A stretch of DNA of 64,000 nt from Escherichia coli (GTDB lineage: Bacteria > Pseudomonadota > Gammaproteobacteria > Enterobacterales > Enterobacteriaceae): the NCBI RefSeq assembly GCF_003790525.1, contig NZ_CP033635.1. The stretch is one strand, 5' to 3'. The position numbers and the translations under genes were made by a program. The notes under the pieces were generated by a model, which searched no databases, had not been told where the DNA came from, and saw nothing but the letters and a program-made list of their open reading frames with translations. Positions 346 through 57,225 of this stretch are shown here, in pieces; within the stretch, counting starts at the first letter, position 1, and every line of letters starts with the position of its first letter.

Positions 346-1449
346 ATGGACCGCATTATTCAATCACCGGGTAAATACATCCAGGGCGCTGATGTGATTA
401 ATCGTCTGGGCGAATACCTGAAGCCACTGGCGGAACGCTGGTTAGTGGTGGGTGACAAATTTGTTTTAGGTTTTGCTCAATCCACTGTCGAGAAAAGCTT
501 TAAAGATGCTGGACTGGTAGTAGAAATTGCGCCGTTTGGCGGTGAATGTTCGCAAAATGAGATCGACCGTCTGCGTGGCATCGCGGAGACTGCGCAGTGT
601 GGCGCAATTCTCGGTATCGGTGGCGGAAAAACCCTCGATACTGCCAAAGCACTGGCACATTTCATGGGTGTTCCGGTAGCGATCGCACCGACTATCGCCT
701 CTACCGACGCACCGTGCAGTGCGTTGTCTGTTATCTACACCGATGAGGGTGAGTTTGACCGCTATCTGATGTTGCCAAATAACCCGAATATGGTCATTGT
801 CGACACCAAAATCGTCGCTGGCGCACCTGCACGTCTGTTAGCGGCGGGTATCGGCGATGCGCTGGCAACCTGGTTTGAAGCACGCGCCTGTTCCCGTAGC
901 GGCGCTACCACCATGGCGGGCGGCAAGTGCACTCAGGCGGCGCTGGCACTGGCAGAACTGTGCTACAACACTCTGCTGGAAGAAGGCGAAAAAGCGATGC
1001 TTGCCGCCGAACAGCATGTAGTGACTCCGGCGCTGGAACGCGTGATTGAAGCGAACACCTATTTGAGCGGTGTTGGTTTTGAAAGCGGCGGGCTGGCGGC
1101 GGCACACGCGGTACATAACGGCCTGACCGCTATCCCGGACGCGCATCACTATTATCATGGTGAAAAAGTGGCATTTGGTACGCTGACGCAGCTGGTACTG
1201 GAAAATGCGCCGGTGGAGGAAATCGAAACCGTAGCTGCCCTTAGCCATGCGGTAGGTTTGCCAATAACGCTCGCTCAACTGGATATTAAAGAAGATGTCC
1301 CGGCGAAAATGCGAATTGTGGCAGAAGCGGCATGTGCAGAAGGTGAAACCATCCACAACATGCCTGGCGGCGCAACGCCAGATCAGGTTTACGCCGCACT
1401 GCTGGTAGCTGACCAGTATGGACAACGTTTCCTGCAAGAGTGGGAATAA
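346..1449 (+). CDS. gldA: Glycerol dehydrogenase
   Basis: Translation [32 protein letters not shown]... matches GldA; start trimmed from the ORF-track 307 to the ATG at 346. Confidence 0.95.
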
Positions 1450-3364: not shown

Positions 3365-5660
<2,296 letters not shown>

Positions 5661-27901: not shown

Positions 27902-28588
27902 ATGGACGTATTCATGCAAAATATTATTCTTTTATTTATATATTTATTACTTATAGTCGTTAACCATTTCCGCTACAAATTCCTTTTGTCTGGCAACACG
28001 GGTGAAATGATTTTATATTTTGCTAACGTATTTTTTAACCCACTTGCCTTATCATTTATTATCGCCACAATCATCTGTATAACGATAAAAAAAAGAAGCA
28101 GCCACAGCTTTATTCGCGGCACTTGTTGGTTAATGGGATTATTTCTTATCTATAGCAGCTATACAGTGTGGGAACGACACAGCACATGGGATTATACTTT
28201 CCCGGGGCCAGGTATCACCGTCACAGTTCCGAGCAAACAGTGGGTTGCCAATATAGTAAAACAAGGACCAATCCTGGTGACTCGGGATGCCCATGCTATT
28301 TTAGTTATTGTTGCCTTCTCACAAAATGAACTCGGTGTGCATTCAATCGAGGAACTTACCGCGACTCAAAACGGAACTGCAGAAATGCATGTTTGTGATG
28401 TTAAGGGATTTGCCTGCGCTTATCAGGAAGGAATTCAAACAATGAGTGATGGCAAAATAAGACATGCTATTTTCATGACTCTACTGGATAACACTAATTT
28501 GATACGACTGGTCGCAGCTATCGACCCAGATTATTTGGACGAATATCAAGAAGAAGTAATGAAAATGATACTTTCTGCCCATCAATAA
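27902..28588 (+). CDS. Hypothetical membrane-anchored protein, tandem paralog 1 (AT-rich islet)
   Basis: 228 aa; N-terminal hydrophobic helices then a soluble domain; shares LLSGxxG, IKKxxxxSFxRGxCW, WxYTF..ITVTxP, HVCxxKxFxCxYQ blocks with the next ORF. Confidence 0.6.
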   Translation: MDVFMQNIILLFIYLLLIVVNHFRYKFLLSGNTGEMILYFANVFFNPLALSFIIATIICITIKKRSSHSFIRGTCWLMGLFLIYSSYTVWERHSTWDYTFPGPGITVTVPSKQWVANIVKQGPILVTRDAHAILVIVAFSQNELGVHSIEELTATQNGTAEMHVCDVKGFACAYQEGIQTMSDGKIRHAIFMTLLDNTNLIRLVAAIDPDYLDEYQEEVMKMILSAHQ

Positions 28589-28620
28589 TCTGATGTGCAT
28601 GTTAATAATAAGGGATTGAT

Positions 28621-29337
28621 ATGAGATACGTTATCTTATTAATACTATGGATAATAACTACTTTTCTTAGTCATCTTCAGCACAGCAACCTACTGTCTGG
28701 AGATCCTGGCATGGTTGGCGAGTATATCGGTTCAGTATTTCTGGGGCCGTTGTTACTTCCCGTGCTTGTGTCAGGTATTCTGTGCGCATTTATTAAAAAA
28801 ACACGTAACTTCGCCAGTTTTACTCGCGGGTGCTGTTGGGTATTGGGAATCCTGCTTTTATCCAAAGTCGGCAATACGTTTCGTATGTTTACCCCGTGGC
28901 AATATACCTTTGAGAATGCTGCGATAACCGTGACTATCCCGAACCGACACTGGAATACGGTTTCCATTAGTACTAATGAAACCATTGATATAAGAAGTGA
29001 GGATAATAGCGTCTTCATTTCTGCTTTCCGCCTGCCCGCAGGACGTAGCGCCGATGACCCGCTGGAAGCGTTAAAGAAGAAGCAGCGAGACAATCTCAAG
29101 GATCAATACAATGAGGAAGCCTTCCAGTTTCATGTTTGTAATGCCAAACATTTCACCTGTAAGTATCAGGATGTGTTGATAAATTTTGATGGTCAGCAGA
29201 AAAGAACCATCAGTGTTTATCTTGAAGACACCCCCAGGGCTGTGGGGATCATTGCATTAATGGCGCCAGATACGGCAGATAAATATCGCCAACAGGCGAT
29301 GGAGATTATGCTTTCCGCTAAAAATGCAGTGAAGTAA
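28621..29337 (+). CDS. Hypothetical membrane-anchored protein, tandem paralog 2 (AT-rich islet)
   Basis: 238 aa; same architecture and motif blocks as paralog 1. Confidence 0.6.
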   Translation: MRYVILLILWIITTFLSHLQHSNLLSGDPGMVGEYIGSVFLGPLLLPVLVSGILCAFIKKTRNFASFTRGCCWVLGILLLSKVGNTFRMFTPWQYTFENAAITVTIPNRHWNTVSISTNETIDIRSEDNSVFISAFRLPAGRSADDPLEALKKKQRDNLKDQYNEEAFQFHVCNAKHFTCKYQDVLINFDGQQKRTISVYLEDTPRAVGIIALMAPDTADKYRQQAMEIMLSAKNAVK

Positions 29338-29366
29338 AAAATAAGGCGCCTTGCGGCGCCTCTGCA
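29338..29366. terminator. Bidirectional terminator shared by paralog 2 and zapB
   Basis: aaaaaataaggcgccttgcggcgcct: GC palindrome flanked by an A/T run. Confidence 0.6.
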
Positions 29367-29375
29367 TGGAAGAGA

Positions 29376-29669
<294 letters not shown>

Positions 29670-39454: not shown

Positions 39455-39570
39455 GCGCTTTGTCCATGCCGGATGCGGCGCGAACGCCTTATCCGGCCTA
39501 CAAAAGTTTGCAAATTCAATAAATTGCAGAATTCATGTAGGCCTGATAAGCGAAGCGCATCAGGCATTTT
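39455..39570. repeat. REP/BIME palindromic units between sbp and pfkA
   Basis: gccggatgcggcgcgaacgccttatccggcctac and gtaggcctgataagcgaagcgcatcaggc. Confidence 0.6.
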
Positions 39571-40764: not shown

Positions 40765-41667
40765 TTATGAAAGCATAGACCGTTTACCCTCCCTGGGTAC
40801 GACGGAACAGGGGTCCTGATGGATAATCACATCCGATCCCGGAAAACGCCGTAAAATAGCCTGCTCTACCTGATCCGCCACCATATGTGCCTGAACCAAA
40901 GGCAGAGAGTCTTCCATTTCCAAATGAATCTGAATAAAGCGGGTCGGCCCTGACTGCCGCGTGCGAAGATCGTGAGCGCCGCTAACACCCGGCCAGGAAG
41001 TCACGATATCAATAATTTCTTGCCGTTCTTCATCAGGCAATGCGCGATCCAGTAATGACTGTACCGCCTCATATCCCATGCGTAACGCGCTATATAAAAT
41101 ATAGATGCCGATTCCCAATGCAAACAGAGCATCGGCGCGATGCCAGCCGTACCAGGACAACCCCAGCGCCAGCAGAATTGCGCCGTTCATCATAACATCA
41201 GACTGGTAATGTAGCATATCAGCCCGCACCGCCTGGCTTTGCGTCCGGCGCACCACCCACCGCTGAAACGAGACAAGGATAATCGTACAAATTAGCGCCA
41301 CAATTGTCACGATAACCCCGACGCCTGGATCTGTCATCGGTGTTGGAGATACCAGATGTTGAATACCCGTCAAAAACAGGAATAGTGCCGAACCGGAGAT
41401 AAACATACTTTGCGCCAGCGCCGCGAGGGACTCAGCTTTACCGTGACCAAACGAGTGATTATCGTCGGCAGGTTGCAGGGAATATCGCACCACCAGTAAA
41501 TTCGTCAACGACGCGCCGATATCCACCAGCGAATCCACCAGCGCGGCGAGAATACTCACCGACCCGGTATACCACCATGCAAAAATTTTAATCAGCAATA
41601 GCAGCGAAGCCATCGCCGTCGCAGCAATCGCCGCCCGACTGACCAGCCGTCCATAAGATTGATTCAT
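40765..41667 (-). CDS. fieF: Cation-diffusion-facilitator Fe/Zn efflux transporter
   Basis: Start trimmed to [42 protein letters not shown]; CDF-family features. Confidence 0.9.
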
Positions 41668-41748
41668 AAATACTCCCGCTATCAACTGACGGTAGTATAA
41701 CGGAAGCAAATCATCTGCAATGCATTAAGCAGCAAGCAAATTGAGGAT

Positions 41749-41776
41749 AAAAAAAACCCCCACATCATGTGGGGGA
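41749..41776 (-). terminator. Strong rho-independent terminator upstream of fieF (minus-strand sense)
   Basis: Minus strand reads cccccacatgatgtggggg followed by tttttttt; it sits where a cpxP-type 3' end would be expected, but no cpxP coding sequence follows. Confidence 0.55.
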
Positions 41777-41878
41777 AGACAGGGATGGTGTCACAAAAAA
41801 TCACCTAACCTACTGATATAAATGGATTTATATAAACCACTGTCCACATAGCGTCCACATCGACCATAAATAAAGCCC

Positions 41879-41891
41879 CTCAACTGAGGGG
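41879..41891. repeat. IS4 target-site duplication, left copy (CTCAACTGAGGGG)
   Basis: 13 bp identical to 43318..43330, directly abutting the IS4 end. Confidence 0.8.
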
Positions 41892-43317
41892 TAATGCCGA
41901 TCAGTTAAGGATCAGTTGACCGATCCAGTGGCTGTGTAAGAATCCGGAAACGCTCACTTGTTTCCGGATTTTTTTATGCACATTGGACAGGCTCTTGATC
42001 TGGTATCCCGTTACGATTCTCTGCGTAACCCACTGACTTCTCTGGGGGATTACCTCGACCCCGAACTCATCTCTCGTTGCCTTGCCGAATCAGGTACTGT
42101 AACGCTACGCAAGCGCCGTCTTCCCCTCGAAATGATGGTCTGGTGTATTGTTGGCATGGCGCTTGAGCGTAAAGAACCTCTTCACCAGATTGTGAATCGC
42201 CTGGACATCATGCTGCCGGGCAATCGCCCCTTCGTTGCCCCCAGTGCCGTTATTCAGGCCCGCCAGCGCCTGGGAAGTGAGGCTGTCCGCCGCGTGTTCA
42301 CGAAAACAGCGCAGCTCTGGCATAACGCCACGCCGCATCCGCACTGGTGCGGCCTGACCCTGCTGGCCATCGATGGTGTGTTCTGGCGCACACCGGATAC
42401 ACCAGAGAACGATGCAGCCTTCCCCCGCCAGACACATGCCGGGAACCCGGCGCTCTACCCGCAGGTCAAAATGGTCTGCCAGATGGAACTGACCAGCCAT
42501 CTGCTGACGGCTGCAGCCTTCGGCACGATGAAGAACAGCGAAAATGAGCTTGCTGAGCAACTTATAGAACAAACCGGCGATAACACTCTGACGTTAATGG
42601 ATAAAGGTTATTACTCACTGGGACTGTTAAATGCCTGGAGCCTGGCGGGAGAACACCGCCACTGGATGATACCTCTCAGAAAGGGAGCGCAATATGAAGA
42701 GATCAGAAAACTGGGTAAAGGCGATCATCTGGTGAAGCTGAAAACCAGCCCGCAGGCACGAAAAAAGTGGCCGGGACTGGGAAATGAAGTGACAGCCCGC
42801 CTGCTGACCGTGACGCGCAAAGGAAAAGTCTGCCATCTGCTGACGTCGATGACGGACGCCATGCGCTTCCCCGGAGGAGAAATGGCGGATCTGTACAGTC
42901 ATCGCTGGGAAATCGAACTGGGATACAGGGAGATAAAACAGACGATGCAACTGAGCAGGCTGACGCTGAGAAGTAAAAAACCGGAGCTTGTGGAGCAAGA
43001 GCTGTGGGGTGTCTTACTGGCTTATAATCTGGTGAGATATCAGATGATTAAAATGGCGGAATATCTGAAAGGTTACTGGCCGAATCAACTGAGTTTCTCA
43101 GAATCATGTGGAATGGTGATGAGAATGCTGATGACATTGCAGGGCGCTTCACCGGGACGTATACCGGAGCTGATGCGCGATCTTGCAAGTATGGGACAAC
43201 TTGTGAAATTACCGACAAGAAGGGAAAGGGCCTTCCCGAGAGTGGTAAAGGAGAGGCCCTGGAAATACCCCACAGCCCCGAAAAAGAGCCAGTCAGTTGC
43301 TTAACTGACTGGCATTA
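41892..43317 (+). mobile_element. Insertion sequence IS4 (1426 bp, apparently intact)
   Basis: Terminal inverted repeats taatgccgatcagttaagg (left) and gcttaactgactggcatta (right, reverse complement taatgccagtcagttaagc); single transposase ORF; 13-bp direct repeats on both sides. Confidence 0.9.
41976..43304 (+). CDS. insG: IS4 transposase
   Basis: 442-aa translation [40 protein letters not shown]... matches IS4 transposase as I recall it. Confidence 0.9.
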
Positions 43318-43330
43318 CTCAACTGAGGGG
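43318..43330. repeat. IS4 target-site duplication, right copy (CTCAACTGAGGGG)
   Basis: Identical to 41879..41891. Confidence 0.8.
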
Positions 43331-43342
43331 CTATTTTTGTGA

Positions 43343-43561
43343 TCACATCCACATAATTTGCTGCCCTGACGGCAACGGGTGCGGCCTCACGGCGTGGACT
43401 TCTCCCGGCTTCACGATGTATCTCTGTACCGACTCATAAGTGATGAACGTGGCGCTGCAATTCACGTTCTGGCACTGGTGATAACGCTCTTTTGTCGTGT
43501 CAGTGATATAGCGGCTTGTACGCGCATGTGCGGCATGCTGGCATAAAGGACAATGAAACAT
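43343..43561 (-). CDS. ogr: P2 late-gene transcription activator Ogr (zinc-finger)
   Basis: 72-aa translation MFHCPLCQHAAHARTSRYITDTTKERYHQCQNVNCSATFITYESVQRYIV...; Cys4 zinc finger. Confidence 0.95.
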   Translation of the reverse strand: MFHCPLCQHAAHARTSRYITDTTKERYHQCQNVNCSATFITYESVQRYIVKPGEVHAVRPHPLPSGQQIMWM

Positions 43562-43642: not shown

Positions 43643-44806
43643 TCACTCATAATCTTCTGTTTCGTACTCCACATCAGAAAGCCTGACCTCAAGCTCTAAG
43701 GACGTCGTGAAGCCGCTATTATTCAGAAAATGTGTCACCTTAGTGACTGTCCAGTCCTGCTCGTCTATGACGCGCTTAAAGCCTGACACTCTGACCGGTG
43801 TTTCCGTGTAAATATCTGCACGACCGGTAGCCAGGATGATGGAGAACTCCGCAACGCCCCGTTGCAGTTTATCCCACTTCGCCTGAGCAGCACGCATGGC
43901 CTGTGCTTTCGTGGCATATACCGTGGTCAGGGCAAAAACGTTGTCAGCCTCACCGGCCATGTATTCACCTTCGCGCGCTTCCGGTACTTTTGGCGCTTTC
44001 TTCTGCGTGACTGGTTTCGCTTTCGGGTGCTCCAGTGCGCGCAGGTGTTTTTCTTTCTTTTTGCGTTTCAGTTTTACCTTCTGCTTTTGCGGCTTCGGGT
44101 CTTTGGTGTGAAGCCACTTTGCCGTTACGCCGGTATAGGCTCCACGGTCAGCAATCGCAAAATGATGACGGTCGCCGTCGCTGCGGGTGATGGTAATCTG
44201 CGGGATTTTTTTACCGCTGGCCGTCACCCCCTGCCCCGCTTTGAGAAACAACAGTTTTCCCATTTTTACCGACACCTCACCGCCGTTGCGTTCAGCAAGG
44301 CGGGTCAGGAATTTTGCATCAGACTCCTGCGACTGGTCGATGTGCGGGATTTTAATTCCGGCCAGTGACGGAGCGACACTGGCTTCCAGCCTGTTACGGG
44401 AGGCTATCGCCTCAACAATCGCACCGAGCGTGGTGTCATGCCAGGAGCCTTCACGGCGGGAATTGAGCGTGCCACGAAAATCTGCACTCCGGGCCCGGAT
44501 GGCGACCACATCCGGCGTGCCCCGGTGTTCTACCTCATCAACGGTGAATTTCCCTTTGCATACCAGGGCAAAACCTTTCCAGCCGATATACACCGTCAGA
44601 ACAGCGCCACGAACCGGCAGTTCGACCTGCCCGTCGGCATCGTTCAGTTCAATATCAAGCTGATCAGCCTCAAAGCCCCGGTTATCCGTCAGGGTCATGC
44701 TCATCAGACGGTCGCTGATATTGCCGGTAATATCCCTGCTGTCGAGCATCAGCATGTAATCCGGCGTCAGCGTACTGCCTGCATCAAATGTCAGCGCATC
44801 CAGCAT
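43643..44806 (-). CDS. D: P2 gpD-like tail protein
   Basis: 387 aa; position between U and ogr. Confidence 0.85.
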   Translation of the reverse strand: MLDALTFDAGSTLTPDYMLMLDSRDITGNISDRLMSMTLTDNRGFEADQLDIELNDADGQVELPVRGAVLTVYIGWKGFALVCKGKFTVDEVEHRGTPDVVAIRARSADFRGTLNSRREGSWHDTTLGAIVEAIASRNRLEASVAPSLAGIKIPHIDQSQESDAKFLTRLAERNGGEVSVKMGKLLFLKAGQGVTASGKKIPQITITRSDGDRHHFAIADRGAYTGVTAKWLHTKDPKPQKQKVKLKRKKKEKHLRALEHPKAKPVTQKKAPKVPEAREGEYMAGEADNVFALTTVYATKAQAMRAAQAKWDKLQRGVAEFSIILATGRADIYTETPVRVSGFKRVIDEQDWTVTKVTHFLNNSGFTTSLELEVRLSDVEYETEDYE

Positions 44807-50264: not shown

Positions 50265-51164
50265 TCAAAGAATTAGCACTTGCTCTTCACTAGAAACTAT
50301 GGTTCTGACTTCACGCTCAAATATTGGATCCATTATCATTTTTCTATTTGTTGGAATAGTAAATTTACCGAGTACCATGACAATGCTACTCAACGGAAAT
50401 AATTTTGGAGTAACATTTCCTAATTGAATCGTAGGATATATATTAAAGCCCCCTTTTATCCTCATTGGCGAACCTTCAATGAAGTGTCGATAATTAAATT
50501 TCGCCATAGGGATTCTCGCCACATGCACTTTCATAATTACAGCAACCTGAGCTATTTTTACTTTCTGGAGGTAAGTTGACAATCGTTCTAACTGCGTTGT
50601 TTCATAGAAAAAATCAGACCACGTTACAGTACTTGTTCCAGTAACAATTTTTATGCTGTTTCTCTTGTTGGGGTGAGCTTTTCCATATTCATAGATCTCC
50701 CGTAAGCTATCCATGTTCTTCACATAAGGGGCTTTCCGACCTCTCTTGACATAAACGCGGTCTGTAGTATCAGAAGGTGGATTTGCCTGCATAGCTGCAG
50801 CTTTTCTGCTTAATTTAGAGATATCATCTTCATCGAGTATATGTATACGGAATATATTATTACCTGTGGCAAGCGCACGGCTGATATCATGACTGGAATC
50901 ACTTGCATAAATTGTATTCAATCCTGAAGTTCCATACTGGCATAATTTGTCATGCGTGAAATTTTTTTCCAGTCTAAAGAAGGCGGGGATATGCAAGGTT
51001 TTATTAAAACTCCGACGAATATGGCTTTTGACATACACCAAATGAGCAGAGCAATTTGGGTCAGGACATTTGAGTGGATAGGGATTAACACTATAATTAA
51101 AAGTATTTACATTTACTAAAATCTGATTGTTATCAATAGCCTGAGTTATACGAATACCACTCAT
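50265..51164 (-). CDS. AT-rich cargo (moron) protein at the P2 Z/fun position between G and FI; candidate phage-exclusion protein
   Basis: 299-aa ORF with markedly lower GC than flanking tail genes; occupies the slot where P2 carries the T5-exclusion gene Z/fun; no family recognised. Confidence 0.6.
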   Translation of the reverse strand: MSGIRITQAIDNNQILVNVNTFNYSVNPYPLKCPDPNCSAHLVYVKSHIRRSFNKTLHIPAFFRLEKNFTHDKLCQYGTSGLNTIYASDSSHDISRALATGNNIFRIHILDEDDISKLSRKAAAMQANPPSDTTDRVYVKRGRKAPYVKNMDSLREIYEYGKAHPNKRNSIKIVTGTSTVTWSDFFYETTQLERLSTYLQKVKIAQVAVIMKVHVARIPMAKFNYRHFIEGSPMRIKGGFNIYPTIQLGNVTPKLFPLSSIVMVLGKFTIPTNRKMIMDPIFEREVRTIVSSEEQVLIL

Positions 51165-56439: not shown

Positions 56440-57225
56440 ATGTTCAGTGATAATGTGACTAATGCGTGGTGGTTTATCTCTTTGTATCTATTTTTATTAA
56501 TAGCATTAACATTTGTTACCTTTGGTAAAAGTAATCTTATGAGGTTTATTGCACATCATTTCAATCTTGAGTATTCAGACAGAAAGTTAAAAATGCTCGA
56601 CAAAAAATGGCGCGACATTCAACTATTTAAAATAATTAACGGAATCAATGTATCAGGCATCGAAGATGTGAGAATGATACAGCAGGGGCTGATTGATGGA
56701 AAACTAAAAACATCGTATTTTTTCCTTACTCGCTTCTGGGGTGACATAACAAAACCACCACACATAATTAAAACAACAATTGTAATTCTGGCCAGTATTA
56801 TTTATATTCTCTTCGCATGTTATATACACAATGAACAATCCGCTATAGTAAGGGATGCCATAGGTATACCATATAAAAATATGATGTACTATGTTTATAG
56901 TGACAAAGTTCTTTTATCCTTCAAAAATAAAACGGTTGAATTTAATAAAACTTATAGCCTTGCCGATTGCAAGAGTCTGCAAAACGTATTTATAAAAGAC
57001 ACACTTCCCGAGATCGCCTGCAATAAGCTCTTACAGCTAAACAAGGAGGACTCCGAATGGTTAAGTCAGGAGATTAAAGATAATAACAGCCACAGAAAAA
57101 CATTATTAATAATATCCCTAACCTATTTCATTTCAGGTCTGCTTATATTCCTGTCATATACAAAATTCCTTTACGCCAATAAGAAGGTTTTAGAATACAA
57201 AGCATCAAATAAAAACCACTCATAA
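56440..57225 (+). CDS. AT-rich cargo (moron) membrane protein at the P2 orf30 position between S and V, opposite strand to the late operon
   Basis: 261 aa, about three predicted TM helices, very AT-rich, divergent from V; no family recognised. Confidence 0.6.
   Translation: MFSDNVTNAWWFISLYLFLLIALTFVTFGKSNLMRFIAHHFNLEYSDRKLKMLDKKWRDIQLFKIINGINVSGIEDVRMIQQGLIDGKLKTSYFFLTRFWGDITKPPHIIKTTIVILASIIYILFACYIHNEQSAIVRDAIGIPYKNMMYYVYSDKVLLSFKNKTVEFNKTYSLADCKSLQNVFIKDTLPEIACNKLLQLNKEDSEWLSQEIKDNNSHRKTLLIISLTYFISGLLIFLSYTKFLYANKKVLEYKASNKNHS

Follow-up and report, generated by a model that had tools for sequence, protein, structure and literature searches.

The window, the whole 64,000-nucleotide stretch of Escherichia coli DNA analysed here, holds what is, judging by its sequence, one end of a complete WPhi-type P2-family (Peduovirus) prophage inserted at the site between cpxP and fieF. 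The chromosomal flank on the attR side carries fieF (40765..41667, minus strand), which was located from the open reading frame list and from the RefSeq annotation of collinear loci through the alignment offset. The last prophage gene before attR is that of the late-gene activator, ogr (ogrK; 43343..43561, minus strand), mapped from the RefSeq annotation of collinear loci. Beyond it lies gene D (43643..44806, minus strand), which encodes a late control D family tail protein and marks the end of the late “F operon” using the ogr terminator.

Integration at the cpxP–fieF attB was confirmed, with a 47-bp core duplicated at the two ends of the prophage. SMS-3-5, which shows one difference from the window in 23 kb, is annotated with the P2 gene order (int-C-cox at one end and D-ogr at the other) and with all genes intact. 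The region from attP to ogr, comprising the core, P arm, hairpin and ogr, was 97.5% identical to that of WPhi (AY135739). The 47-bp core of the WPhi attP is identical to that of the window prophage, and the int-side arm repeats are the same; relative to WPhi, the window prophage is a mosaic relative that carries IS4. A 47-nt identity at 88.6 min was reportedly described for WPhi by Liu and Haggard-Ljungquist in 1999. The window prophage was also collinear with, and 99.4% identical to, the phage record OU784549.1 (33,562 bp). E. coli W has the prophage Wphi1 at cpxP–fieF (PMC3032704), and identity to the E. coli W prophage was ~95% over 94% of a 12-kb late-gene segment. Two cargo open reading frames gave no match in PADLOC or NCBIfam.

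An intact, full-length IS4 of 1426 bp occupies 41892..43317 on the plus strand, with its left inverted repeat (IRL) at 41892..41909 and its right inverted repeat (IRR) at 43300..43317. The two ends, TAATGCCGATCAGTTAAG and the reverse-complemented TAATGCCAGTCAGTTAAG, match at 16 of 18 positions and form imperfect inverted repeats. The transposase gene (41976..43304, plus strand) is convergent with ogr and encodes 442 aa from its ATG; in the RefSeq annotation it starts upstream at a TTG at 41958, which gives 448 aa. Its product matched the NCBIfam profile NF033592 (IS4 family transposase) with 304.5 bits against a cut-off of 115, and the match spanned profile positions 3–332 of 332, in a single and intact DDE transposase open reading frame. 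The end comparison and the profile match bear out the first-pass annotation, made from the letters of the window, which had described an intact 1426-bp IS4 with a 442-aa transposase and imperfect inverted repeats. Compared with the known IS4 of E. coli (IS4 subgroup; transposase InsG), the window copy is alike in length, ends, open reading frame and target duplication, and no difference was found in the element; the insertion site alone is particular. Target duplications in the IS4 subgroup measure 10–13 bp (PMC2266710), and the 13-bp duplication of the window copy falls inside this range. Many E. coli genomes hold 100%-identical copies, labelled “IS4-like element IS4 family transposase”. The intact open reading frame and ends, together with these multiple identical copies, only suggest that the window IS4 is currently active.

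The element is flanked by perfect 13-bp direct repeats, CTCAACTGAGGGG, at 41879..41891 (left copy of the target duplication) and 43318..43330 (right copy). A repeat search of the window with one mismatch allowed found just these two copies, against 0.07 expected by chance, and so confirmed the repeats called at first reading. Removal of IS4 and one repeat gives the reconstructed site AAATAAAGCCCCTCAACTGAGGGGCTATTTTT, which stands unbroken at the fieF–ogr junction in ~614 complete E. coli genomes (e.g. CLSC36). The hairpin that it forms is also unbroken in phage WPhi and in free WPhi-like phage genomes, and the earlier proposal that a hairpin is restored when IS4 is taken out therefore held. 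Folding energies for the two strands of the reconstructed site are −16.7 and −19.6 kcal/mol, values that 0 of 200 shuffles reached. On the ogr strand the fold of −16.7 kcal/mol (z = −4.5) is followed by UUUAUUU. From the end of the stem (43331) to the ogr stop codon (43343..43345) there are 11 nt, close to the 12 bp first given for this distance.

In the P2 reference record (NC_001895), positions 24265..24288 are annotated as “rho-independent terminator for ogr transcript and F operon”. The window hairpin AGCCCCTCAGTTGAGGGGCT differs from this P2 terminator, AGCCCCTCAGTCGAGGGGCT, by one loop base, and the two occupy the same place, a few bases past the end of ogr, with the Int P-arm repeats immediately beyond. 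The hairpin targeted by IS4 is thus the predicted intrinsic terminator of ogr and the F operon, as the first-pass annotation had supposed when it took the hairpin for the terminator downstream of ogr; it is whole in P2, whereas in the window it is split by IS4.

Comparison of attL, attR and the K-12 attB placed the 47-bp att core of attR at 41746..41792. The core sequence, GATAAAAAAAACCCCCACATCATGTGGGGGAAGACAGGGATGGTGTC, is common to attL and attR and is the sole part held in common with the empty K-12 cpxP–fieF site. It consists of the 3′ 44 nt of the cpxQ sRNA gene, terminator hairpin included, plus 3 nt, and overlaps the annotated cpxQ (K-12 4106330..4106387), the sRNA gene of the cpxP 3′UTR. 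This overlap rests on the K-12 RefSeq annotation, and Rfam gave no CpxQ match at the core at the gathering threshold. For annotation, the true prophage boundary is therefore the core at these positions, inside the cpxQ sRNA gene.

An IHF consensus match, TATCAGTAGGTTA (WATCARNNNNTTR), separates the core from the P arm, at 41806..41818 on the minus strand; it is one of 12 such matches in the 64-kb window, and the position of this predicted IHF site agrees with the IHF footprint annotated in P2. The putative P-arm Int arm-type sites (41836..41863, minus strand) contain two direct ATGTGGAC repeats, at 41842..41849 and 41853..41860, both of which fit the P2-type arm consensus tgTGGaCa (PMC3448106). 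They are homologous to the “Int P arm” footprint of P2, which directly follows the ogr terminator. The window order agrees with the annotated P2 layout of ogr, terminator, Int P arm, IHF, core, Cox and P′ arm. The two differ in core sequence and attB, with a core of 27 bp in P2 and of 47 bp, at cpxQ, in the window, and in the spacing between P arm and core (35 bp in P2, 43 bp in the window). A third arm-site candidate, ATCCACAT at 43348..43355, was rejected: it belongs to the coding sequence of ogr (C-terminal ...IMWM), and P2 has the same codons while its footprinted P arm lies across the terminator.

The arm repeats and the IHF consensus are uninterrupted and all stand to the left (core side) of IS4, and 28 bp of native sequence separate IS4 from the equivalent of the P-arm footprint. 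Cox works on the int side, at attL (PMC3936717; the P2 record agrees). With the extent of attR and the binding of Int and IHF carried over from the P2 footprints in NC_001895 to the WPhi-type site, the insertion would lie just outside attR, inside the prophage, and attR looks structurally complete.

The left junction (41866..41891, minus strand), which comprises the left duplication copy and native flank, was examined by terminator scan and folding. On the ogr strand it keeps the terminator in a 6-bp version, with a T-run after it (CCCCTCAGTTGAGGGG, then CTTTATTTAT). The strongest site of the terminator scan was a hairpin at the right end of IS4 (43278..43313, minus strand), with an 11-bp stem and then TCTTTTT on the ogr strand; its fold was computed for 43270..43345 on the minus strand. 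This terminal hairpin with its T-run lies ~30 nt beyond the broken terminator copy on the ogr strand; it is terminator-like and would be well placed to stop those ogr and F-operon transcripts that run into IS4. The scan found no plus-strand terminator between the transposase gene and ogr, so a convergent transposase transcript may read through antisense into ogr.

We assign a probability of roughly 0.85 to the reading that IS4 sits in the ogr terminator of a WPhi-type prophage whose attR is intact. Int would have integrated the prophage at the 47-bp WPhi attB in the cpxP(cpxQ)–fieF spacer, with the order, counted from fieF, of att core, IHF site, two Int arm-type repeats (P arm), ogr/F-operon terminator and ogr. 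An active IS4 would have transposed into the terminator hairpin, duplicating 13 bp of the stem-loop without disturbing core, IHF site or arm sites; attR would thus be structurally intact, and we infer that it also stays functional. The expected consequences are small. The prophage would have gained 1439 bp, to 35,001 bp core-to-core, and the split original terminator would be backed by the 6-bp version at the left junction and by the IS4 end hairpin with its T-run. The finding is an ordinary one.

Comparison of complete genomes bears on the mobility of the IS4-carrying prophage. The prophages of AHM8C212RI and SMS-3-5 are both 35,001 bp long, carry intact phage genes and differ at 8 sites in 33.4 kb, with one additional 3-SNP cluster in IS4. 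Their chromosomal flanks, by contrast, show 14 differences/kb on the attL side and 13–14/kb on the attR side (~1.4%). Divergence changes over at the att cores: going outwards, the first chromosomal SNPs are met 11 bp from the attR core, which itself holds one SNP, and 93 bp from the attL core. Import of the prophage into the second background within a larger chromosomal segment was considered and rejected, since SNP density changes at both cores. The two IS4 copies at the ogr terminator have the same orientation and agree at 6/6 commonly polymorphic positions, among them 1171T, a variant that 0/9 other full-length copies in the comparison had. Among 5,426 complete genomes, all ten with a 12-kb prophage segment of ≥99.5% identity carry IS4, and the next-best (≤99.3%) do not. 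These comparisons suggest that the IS4-carrying phage stayed mobile, and we lean slightly towards the view that it could still excise, package and lysogenise. The block to excision predicted at first reading finds no support, and the near-identical IS4 prophage in a ~1.4% divergent chromosome speaks against it. P2-type repressors are not known to be SOS-inducible.

An unlikely alternative, and the one that stands up best, is that attR was spared and the prophage was nevertheless disabled as a phage, and that the insertions in the two backgrounds are independent. The cause could be a 35.0-kb size past efficient packaging, a disturbance of ogr and the late genes by the split terminator or by antisense transcription, or an effect on the distal P-arm edge. 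At 35,001 bp the prophage is ~3.5% over the longest P2-like phage record listed (33,807 bp) and above every other length listed for P2-like phages, so that packaging could be impaired. P2-family capsids, however, package ~35 kb elsewhere, for instance in phiCTX, SopEphi and P4 trimers. In favour of a disabled phage, the transposase gene lacks a plus-strand terminator ahead of ogr, the site has been struck independently several times in both orientations, and FXCREC180 and JXZ9A32M, of IS4-bearing lineages, have heavily deleted prophages. The records of free phages point the same way: the phage collection held no P2-like record carrying IS4, and a search of IMG/VR viral contigs for the IS4/hairpin left junction in the window's orientation gave 0 exact matches. 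IS4 occurred in two lambdoid records only of that collection, LR595863.1 and PV340577.1; these show phage genomes with IS4, whereas carriage by a P2-like phage is drawn from the prophage comparisons. Against independent insertion into disabled prophages, the prophage variant was never found without IS4 among the complete genomes, and the copy in the second background matches in orientation and in allele at all six common sites, the rare 1171T included. The two copies differ by a single cluster of three SNPs, in keeping with the age of the prophage itself, and the intact phage genes of SMS-3-5 and AHM8C212RI also argue against a disabled phage.

Far less probable is the suggestion of the first-pass annotation that the hairpin forms all or part of the attR core. 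IS4 would then have broken attR in two, Int could no longer excise the prophage, and both prophage and cargo would be fixed in the chromosome. In favour of this idea, P2-family attP sites do lie on this side of ogr, towards the chromosome, and, as with many att cores, runs of A and T border the hairpin. However, the check proposed for this idea, a search of the other prophage end for a common hairpin, gave a different result: neither attL nor the K-12 attB contains the hairpin, and the 47-mer is common instead. A core mapping elsewhere had been named beforehand as evidence against the idea, and attL and attR indeed have in common a different 47-bp sequence, with its near edge 86 bp from the target duplication and with the sole homology to the empty K-12 site. 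The hairpin is moreover the counterpart of the annotated P2 ogr terminator, outside the P-arm footprint, and the arm repeats and IHF consensus are whole on the core side of IS4. That the repeats and the IS reflect an assembly artefact or a chance resemblance has a negligible probability, as 13 complete genomes, assembled independently, show the same junctions, the 13-mer stands at two junctions only, the IS has its full length and an undamaged transposase, and no point in support was found.

With IS4 placed in the ogr terminator and attR intact, the element is a passenger within the prophage and not an attR lesion, and the prophage should therefore not be scored as “grounded” from the IS. Most likely, IS4 does not lock the prophage in the chromosome.

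The choice of site was compared with other IS4 insertions. An A-run was present in 7/7 distinct reconstructed IS4 sites, beside a 12–13-bp duplication over the dyad centre, and 6/7 of these sites fold into a strong GC-rich hairpin (z −3.4 to −7.3). From these sites, the predicted preference of IS4 is for targets made up of an A-run, a GC-rich dyad and a T-run, that is, for terminator-like hairpins, and IS4 would have landed in the ogr terminator because of this preference. Mayaux et al. are said to have given, in 1984, the IS4 target rule “AAAN20TTT”, which the reconstructed site fits. Some elements of the IS4 subgroup show “spectacular apparent insertion specificity” (PMC2266710).

At the ogr terminator itself, IS4 was found in 13 genomes in the window's orientation and in 5 in the opposite one, with the same 13 bp duplicated in all and with at least four IS4 alleles. 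On this evidence, IS4 would have struck the same 13 bp independently on three or four occasions at the least, and in both orientations. We hold in even balance the wider proposal that IS4 repeatedly finds a “safe-harbour” hot spot in the ogr terminator of WPhi/P2-type phages, and that the 35.0-kb phage is viable and carried IS4 between E. coli lineages ~1.4% divergent. Two things would make insertion there tolerable: the position of the site, with the late operon on one side and attP on the other, and the terminator hairpin that IS4 carries at its own end. If this proposal is true, a temperate phage would serve as the vehicle for an insertion sequence, and viability of the IS4-bearing phage would make it a small, clean case of phage-mediated insertion-sequence spread. 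Through the preference of IS4 for terminator-like hairpins, its insertions concentrate at the ends of genes, and unrelated lineages can acquire one at the very same base pair; because of this recurrence shared IS4 sites are unreliable markers of common descent.

The element at 41892..43317 (1426 bp) is IS4 itself and not a new kind of system. Its ends, TAATGCCGATCAGTTAAG compared with the reverse complement TAATGCCAGTCAGTTAAG, are identical at 16 of 18 positions, and its single long ORF (41976..43304, 442 aa from the ATG; the RefSeq start is a TTG 18 nt upstream) matched the IS4 transposase model of NCBIfam over its full length with 304 bits (cut-off 115). Many complete E. coli genomes hold 100% identical copies annotated as IS4, and a match to the window IS4 was present in 2,686 of 5,426 complete genomes. 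The direct repeats CTCAACTGAGGGG bracket the element at 41879..41891 and 43318..43330 and occur nowhere else in the window (chance expectation 0.07). Deletion of IS4 and one repeat restored ...CATAAATAAAGCCCCTCAACTGAGGGGCTATTTTTGTG..., the natural pre-insertion sequence, which is uninterrupted at the fieF–ogr junction in approximately 614 complete E. coli genomes (read directly in CLSC36) and continuous in the genomes of free phages, WPhi among them. The intact IS4 with a 13-bp duplication in a hairpin, reported in the first-pass annotation, was thus confirmed in every detail by its ends, ORF, repeats and uninterrupted site. The window differed from E. coli SMS-3-5 at one position in 23 kb, and the insertion at ogr is already present in the RefSeq annotation of that strain.

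The restored hairpin lies downstream of the ogr stop codon (43343..43345, minus strand), gives a strong fold on either strand and is flanked by U-runs, so the earlier reading of it as a bidirectional terminator was correct. P2 (NC_001895) has an annotated counterpart, the “rho-independent terminator for ogr transcript and F operon” (24265..24288), whose sequence AGCCCCTCAGTCGAGGGGCT differs from the window hairpin by one loop base. The IS4 target is the terminator already known for ogr and the F operon in P2-type phages. The P2 record places ogr at 24036..24254, the Int P arm at 24293..24320, with arm repeats TCGATGTGG... directly after the terminator, IHF at 24324..24357, the attP core at 24356..24383, Cox at 24399..24472 and the Int P' arm at 24470..24496. 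The order of ogr stop, hairpin, arm repeats, IHF consensus and core is conserved on the window minus strand, which carries two ATGTGGAC repeats (41842..41849 and 41853..41860), putative Int arm sites fitting the P2-type arm consensus tgTGGaCa (PMC3448106), and a predicted IHF site, TATCAGTAGGTTA (41806..41818); the IHF consensus is matched only 12 times in the 64 kb.

The prophage remainder beyond the window was read in SMS-3-5 and in the IS4-free relative CLSC36. The gene order in both is pfkA, fieF, (ogr, D, U, T ... Q, P ... A, B, cox, C, int), cpxP, cpxR, and a complete P2-family prophage sits between fieF and cpxP. It is a WPhi-type Peduovirus at an already known site, where the E. coli W genome carries the Wphi1 prophage (PMC3032704). 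The sole sequence common to the int-side and ogr-side junctions was the 47-mer GATAAAAAAAACCCCCACATCATGTGGGGGAAGACAGGGATGGTGTC. When both junctions were aligned with the unoccupied K-12 cpxP–fieF spacer, K-12 matched the window from fieF to the right edge of this 47-mer and matched attL from cpxP to its left edge, so that the att core is 41746..41792 in the window (attR) and 3772..3818 in the SMS-3-5 locus (attL). The window from 41793 rightwards is phage DNA, and the target duplication begins 86 bp inside the phage. The hairpin was not found at attL; the earlier proposal that it formed the attR core was therefore wrong, the core lying elsewhere in an intact attR, and the prophage boundary is corrected here. 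WPhi has an identical 47-mer in the same surroundings, with 97.5% identity across core, arm, hairpin and ogr. The core-to-core length is 35,001 bp, or 33,562 bp without IS4 and one repeat; a virion-form phage record (OU784549.1) has exactly the latter length and is collinear with the IS4-less prophage, to which it is 99.4% identical.

The att core is the terminator end of cpxQ, the sRNA gene from the cpxP 3'UTR (region 731..791 of the K-12 locus). It covers nt 15–58 (the 3' 44 nt) of the annotated 58-nt cpxQ plus 3 nt, and the K-12 core differs by one loop base. The full cpxQ is rebuilt at attL, and attR holds a partial second cpxQ lacking the first 14 nt, with the terminator kept and phage P-arm DNA upstream. 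An Rfam search at gathering threshold gave no match at the core.

IS4 was found at the ogr terminator in the window orientation in 13 complete genomes and in the opposite orientation in five, with the identical 13 bp duplicated in both, making this terminator a true IS4 hot spot. Besides the window allele, the site held one with a single difference, in both orientations within a degraded prophage common to FXCREC180 and JXZ9A32M, one with six differences in 23CRST038, and one with eight in the clearly divergent prophage of R8. The differing alleles and orientations indicate that IS4 entered this terminator independently no fewer than three or four times in ~630 prophages at the locus, documenting recurrent IS4 insertion in a phage terminator. 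JXZ9A32M and FXCREC180 share a heavily deleted prophage in which ogr abuts a truncated tail-sheath gene; their flanks are 99.8–99.9% identical and the IS4 allele and 13 bp are the same, with IS4 in opposite orientations; IS4 either hit this site twice independently or re-inserted there.

Seven distinct IS4 target sites were reconstructed from complete genomes: the ogr terminator, a site beside another prophage integrase, rnk–rna, yhcO–yhcN, hcxB–ybiE, an AraC-family fragment–melR, and ibsA–ibs. All seven had a 12–13-bp duplication across a dyad centre with an A-run before it, and six folded into a strong hairpin (z −3.4 to −7.3). The AAAN20TTT rule for IS4 targets, from the older literature, is fitted exactly by the ogr site, and the seven sites agree with it. 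They also agree with the 10–13-bp duplications and marked arm specificity of the IS4 subgroup (PMC2266710). Elsewhere in E. coli (loci L004 and L010–L014), IS4 occupied sites with an A-run and a GC-hairpin, chiefly at the 3' ends of genes or in the gaps separating convergent genes, as at rnk–rna, yhcO–yhcN, hcxB–ybiE, the ibsA region and beside the other prophage integrase. IS4 thus looks like a terminator-seeking element, in which case a shared insertion site need not imply common descent.

The first-pass annotation expected the insertion to block excision and fix the prophage; comparison of SMS-3-5 with AHM8C212RI argues against this. The AHM8C212RI prophage is also 35,001 bp, with IS4 at the same place in the same orientation. 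The two prophages showed eight differences in 33.4 kb (0.24/kb) and their IS4 copies one cluster of three SNPs within 45 bp, versus 14/kb in the chromosomal flank on the cpxP side and 13–14/kb on the fieF side. Divergence switches at the att cores: around attR, the closest chromosomal differences are one within the core and one 11 bp beyond it, and at attL the closest lies 93 bp from the core, on its outer side. Such a switch is the mark of Int-mediated acquisition and not of import on a larger chromosomal block. Both IS4 copies are the same at all six positions variable among other copies, among them 1171T, seen in none of nine other full-length copies compared. Among the 5,426 genomes, ten had ≥99.5% identity over 12 kb of the prophage, all with IS4, and the next-best matches (≤99.3%) were without it. 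On the simplest reading, IS4 was already inside the phage when at least one of the two lineages was lysogenised, so that excision, packaging and integration would still have worked. We give a probability of roughly 55–60% that the IS4-bearing prophage stayed mobile, a plausible example of IS transport by a temperate phage. The less likely alternative is that the two IS4-bearing prophages arose by independent insertion into the proven hot spot, in keeping with three points: no P2-like phage record carried IS4 and no IMG/VR contig gave an exact match to its left junction, 35.0 kb exceeds the longest P2-like record listed (33,807 bp) by ~3.5%, and two IS4-bearing lineages have decayed prophages. 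A prophage crippled with attR intact is likewise less likely. Disruption of attR itself is highly improbable, because the core lies elsewhere and IS4 sits distal to every element that P2 needs on its P-arm side, as seen from the core; 28 bp of native sequence separate the P-arm footprint equivalent (41863) from the start of IS4. Cox sites and the P' arm lie on the int side, i.e. at attL (P2 record; PMC3936717).

On the ogr strand, the right-hand repeat copy retains a stem of only 3 bp, which destroys the original terminator at this end. The IS4 terminal hairpin, an 11-bp stem (43313..43288) followed by TCTTTTT, lies some 30 nt beyond and is the best terminator-like site of the region. The left copy of the duplicated 13 bp, together with native flank, forms a 6-bp terminator version with a T-run (41891..41866), predicted to stop transcripts leaving IS4 towards attR and fieF, with the core's cpxQ terminator behind. 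No plus-strand terminator was found between the transposase gene and ogr, so some antisense read-through into ogr may be possible.

Two ORFs, at 50265..51164 (minus strand) and 56440..57225 (plus strand), occupy classic P2 “moron” positions, in the gap separating the tail-sheath and tail-fibre-assembly genes and in that separating V and S. They are full-length phrog_7195 and phrog_2407, without assigned function, and gave no match to PADLOC or NCBIfam. Near cos, beyond the window, the SMS-3-5 prophage encodes a ParB-N-domain protein, a hypothetical protein and a DNA cytosine methyltransferase. Within the 12-kb late-gene segment compared (D to the baseplate genes), related prophages are interrupted by an IS3-family element (GN03551, GN03139, TW10590) or ISEc12 (IS21-like; several poultry isolates), so IS accumulation is common in these P2-like prophages. 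Between rraA and zapB, a ~1.5-kb segment (27853..29379) is absent from three other aligned E. coli chromosomes (R8, FXCREC180, AHM8C212RI), and its ORFs (27902..28588 and 28621..29337) had no NCBIfam match. Three Rfam matches at gathering score are ordinary chromosomal features: the L31 ribosomal protein leader (19693..19745, minus strand), the ClpQY (hslVU) promoter element (24357..24414, plus strand) and the ES036/CssrF sRNA between sbp and pfkA (39503..39544, plus strand).
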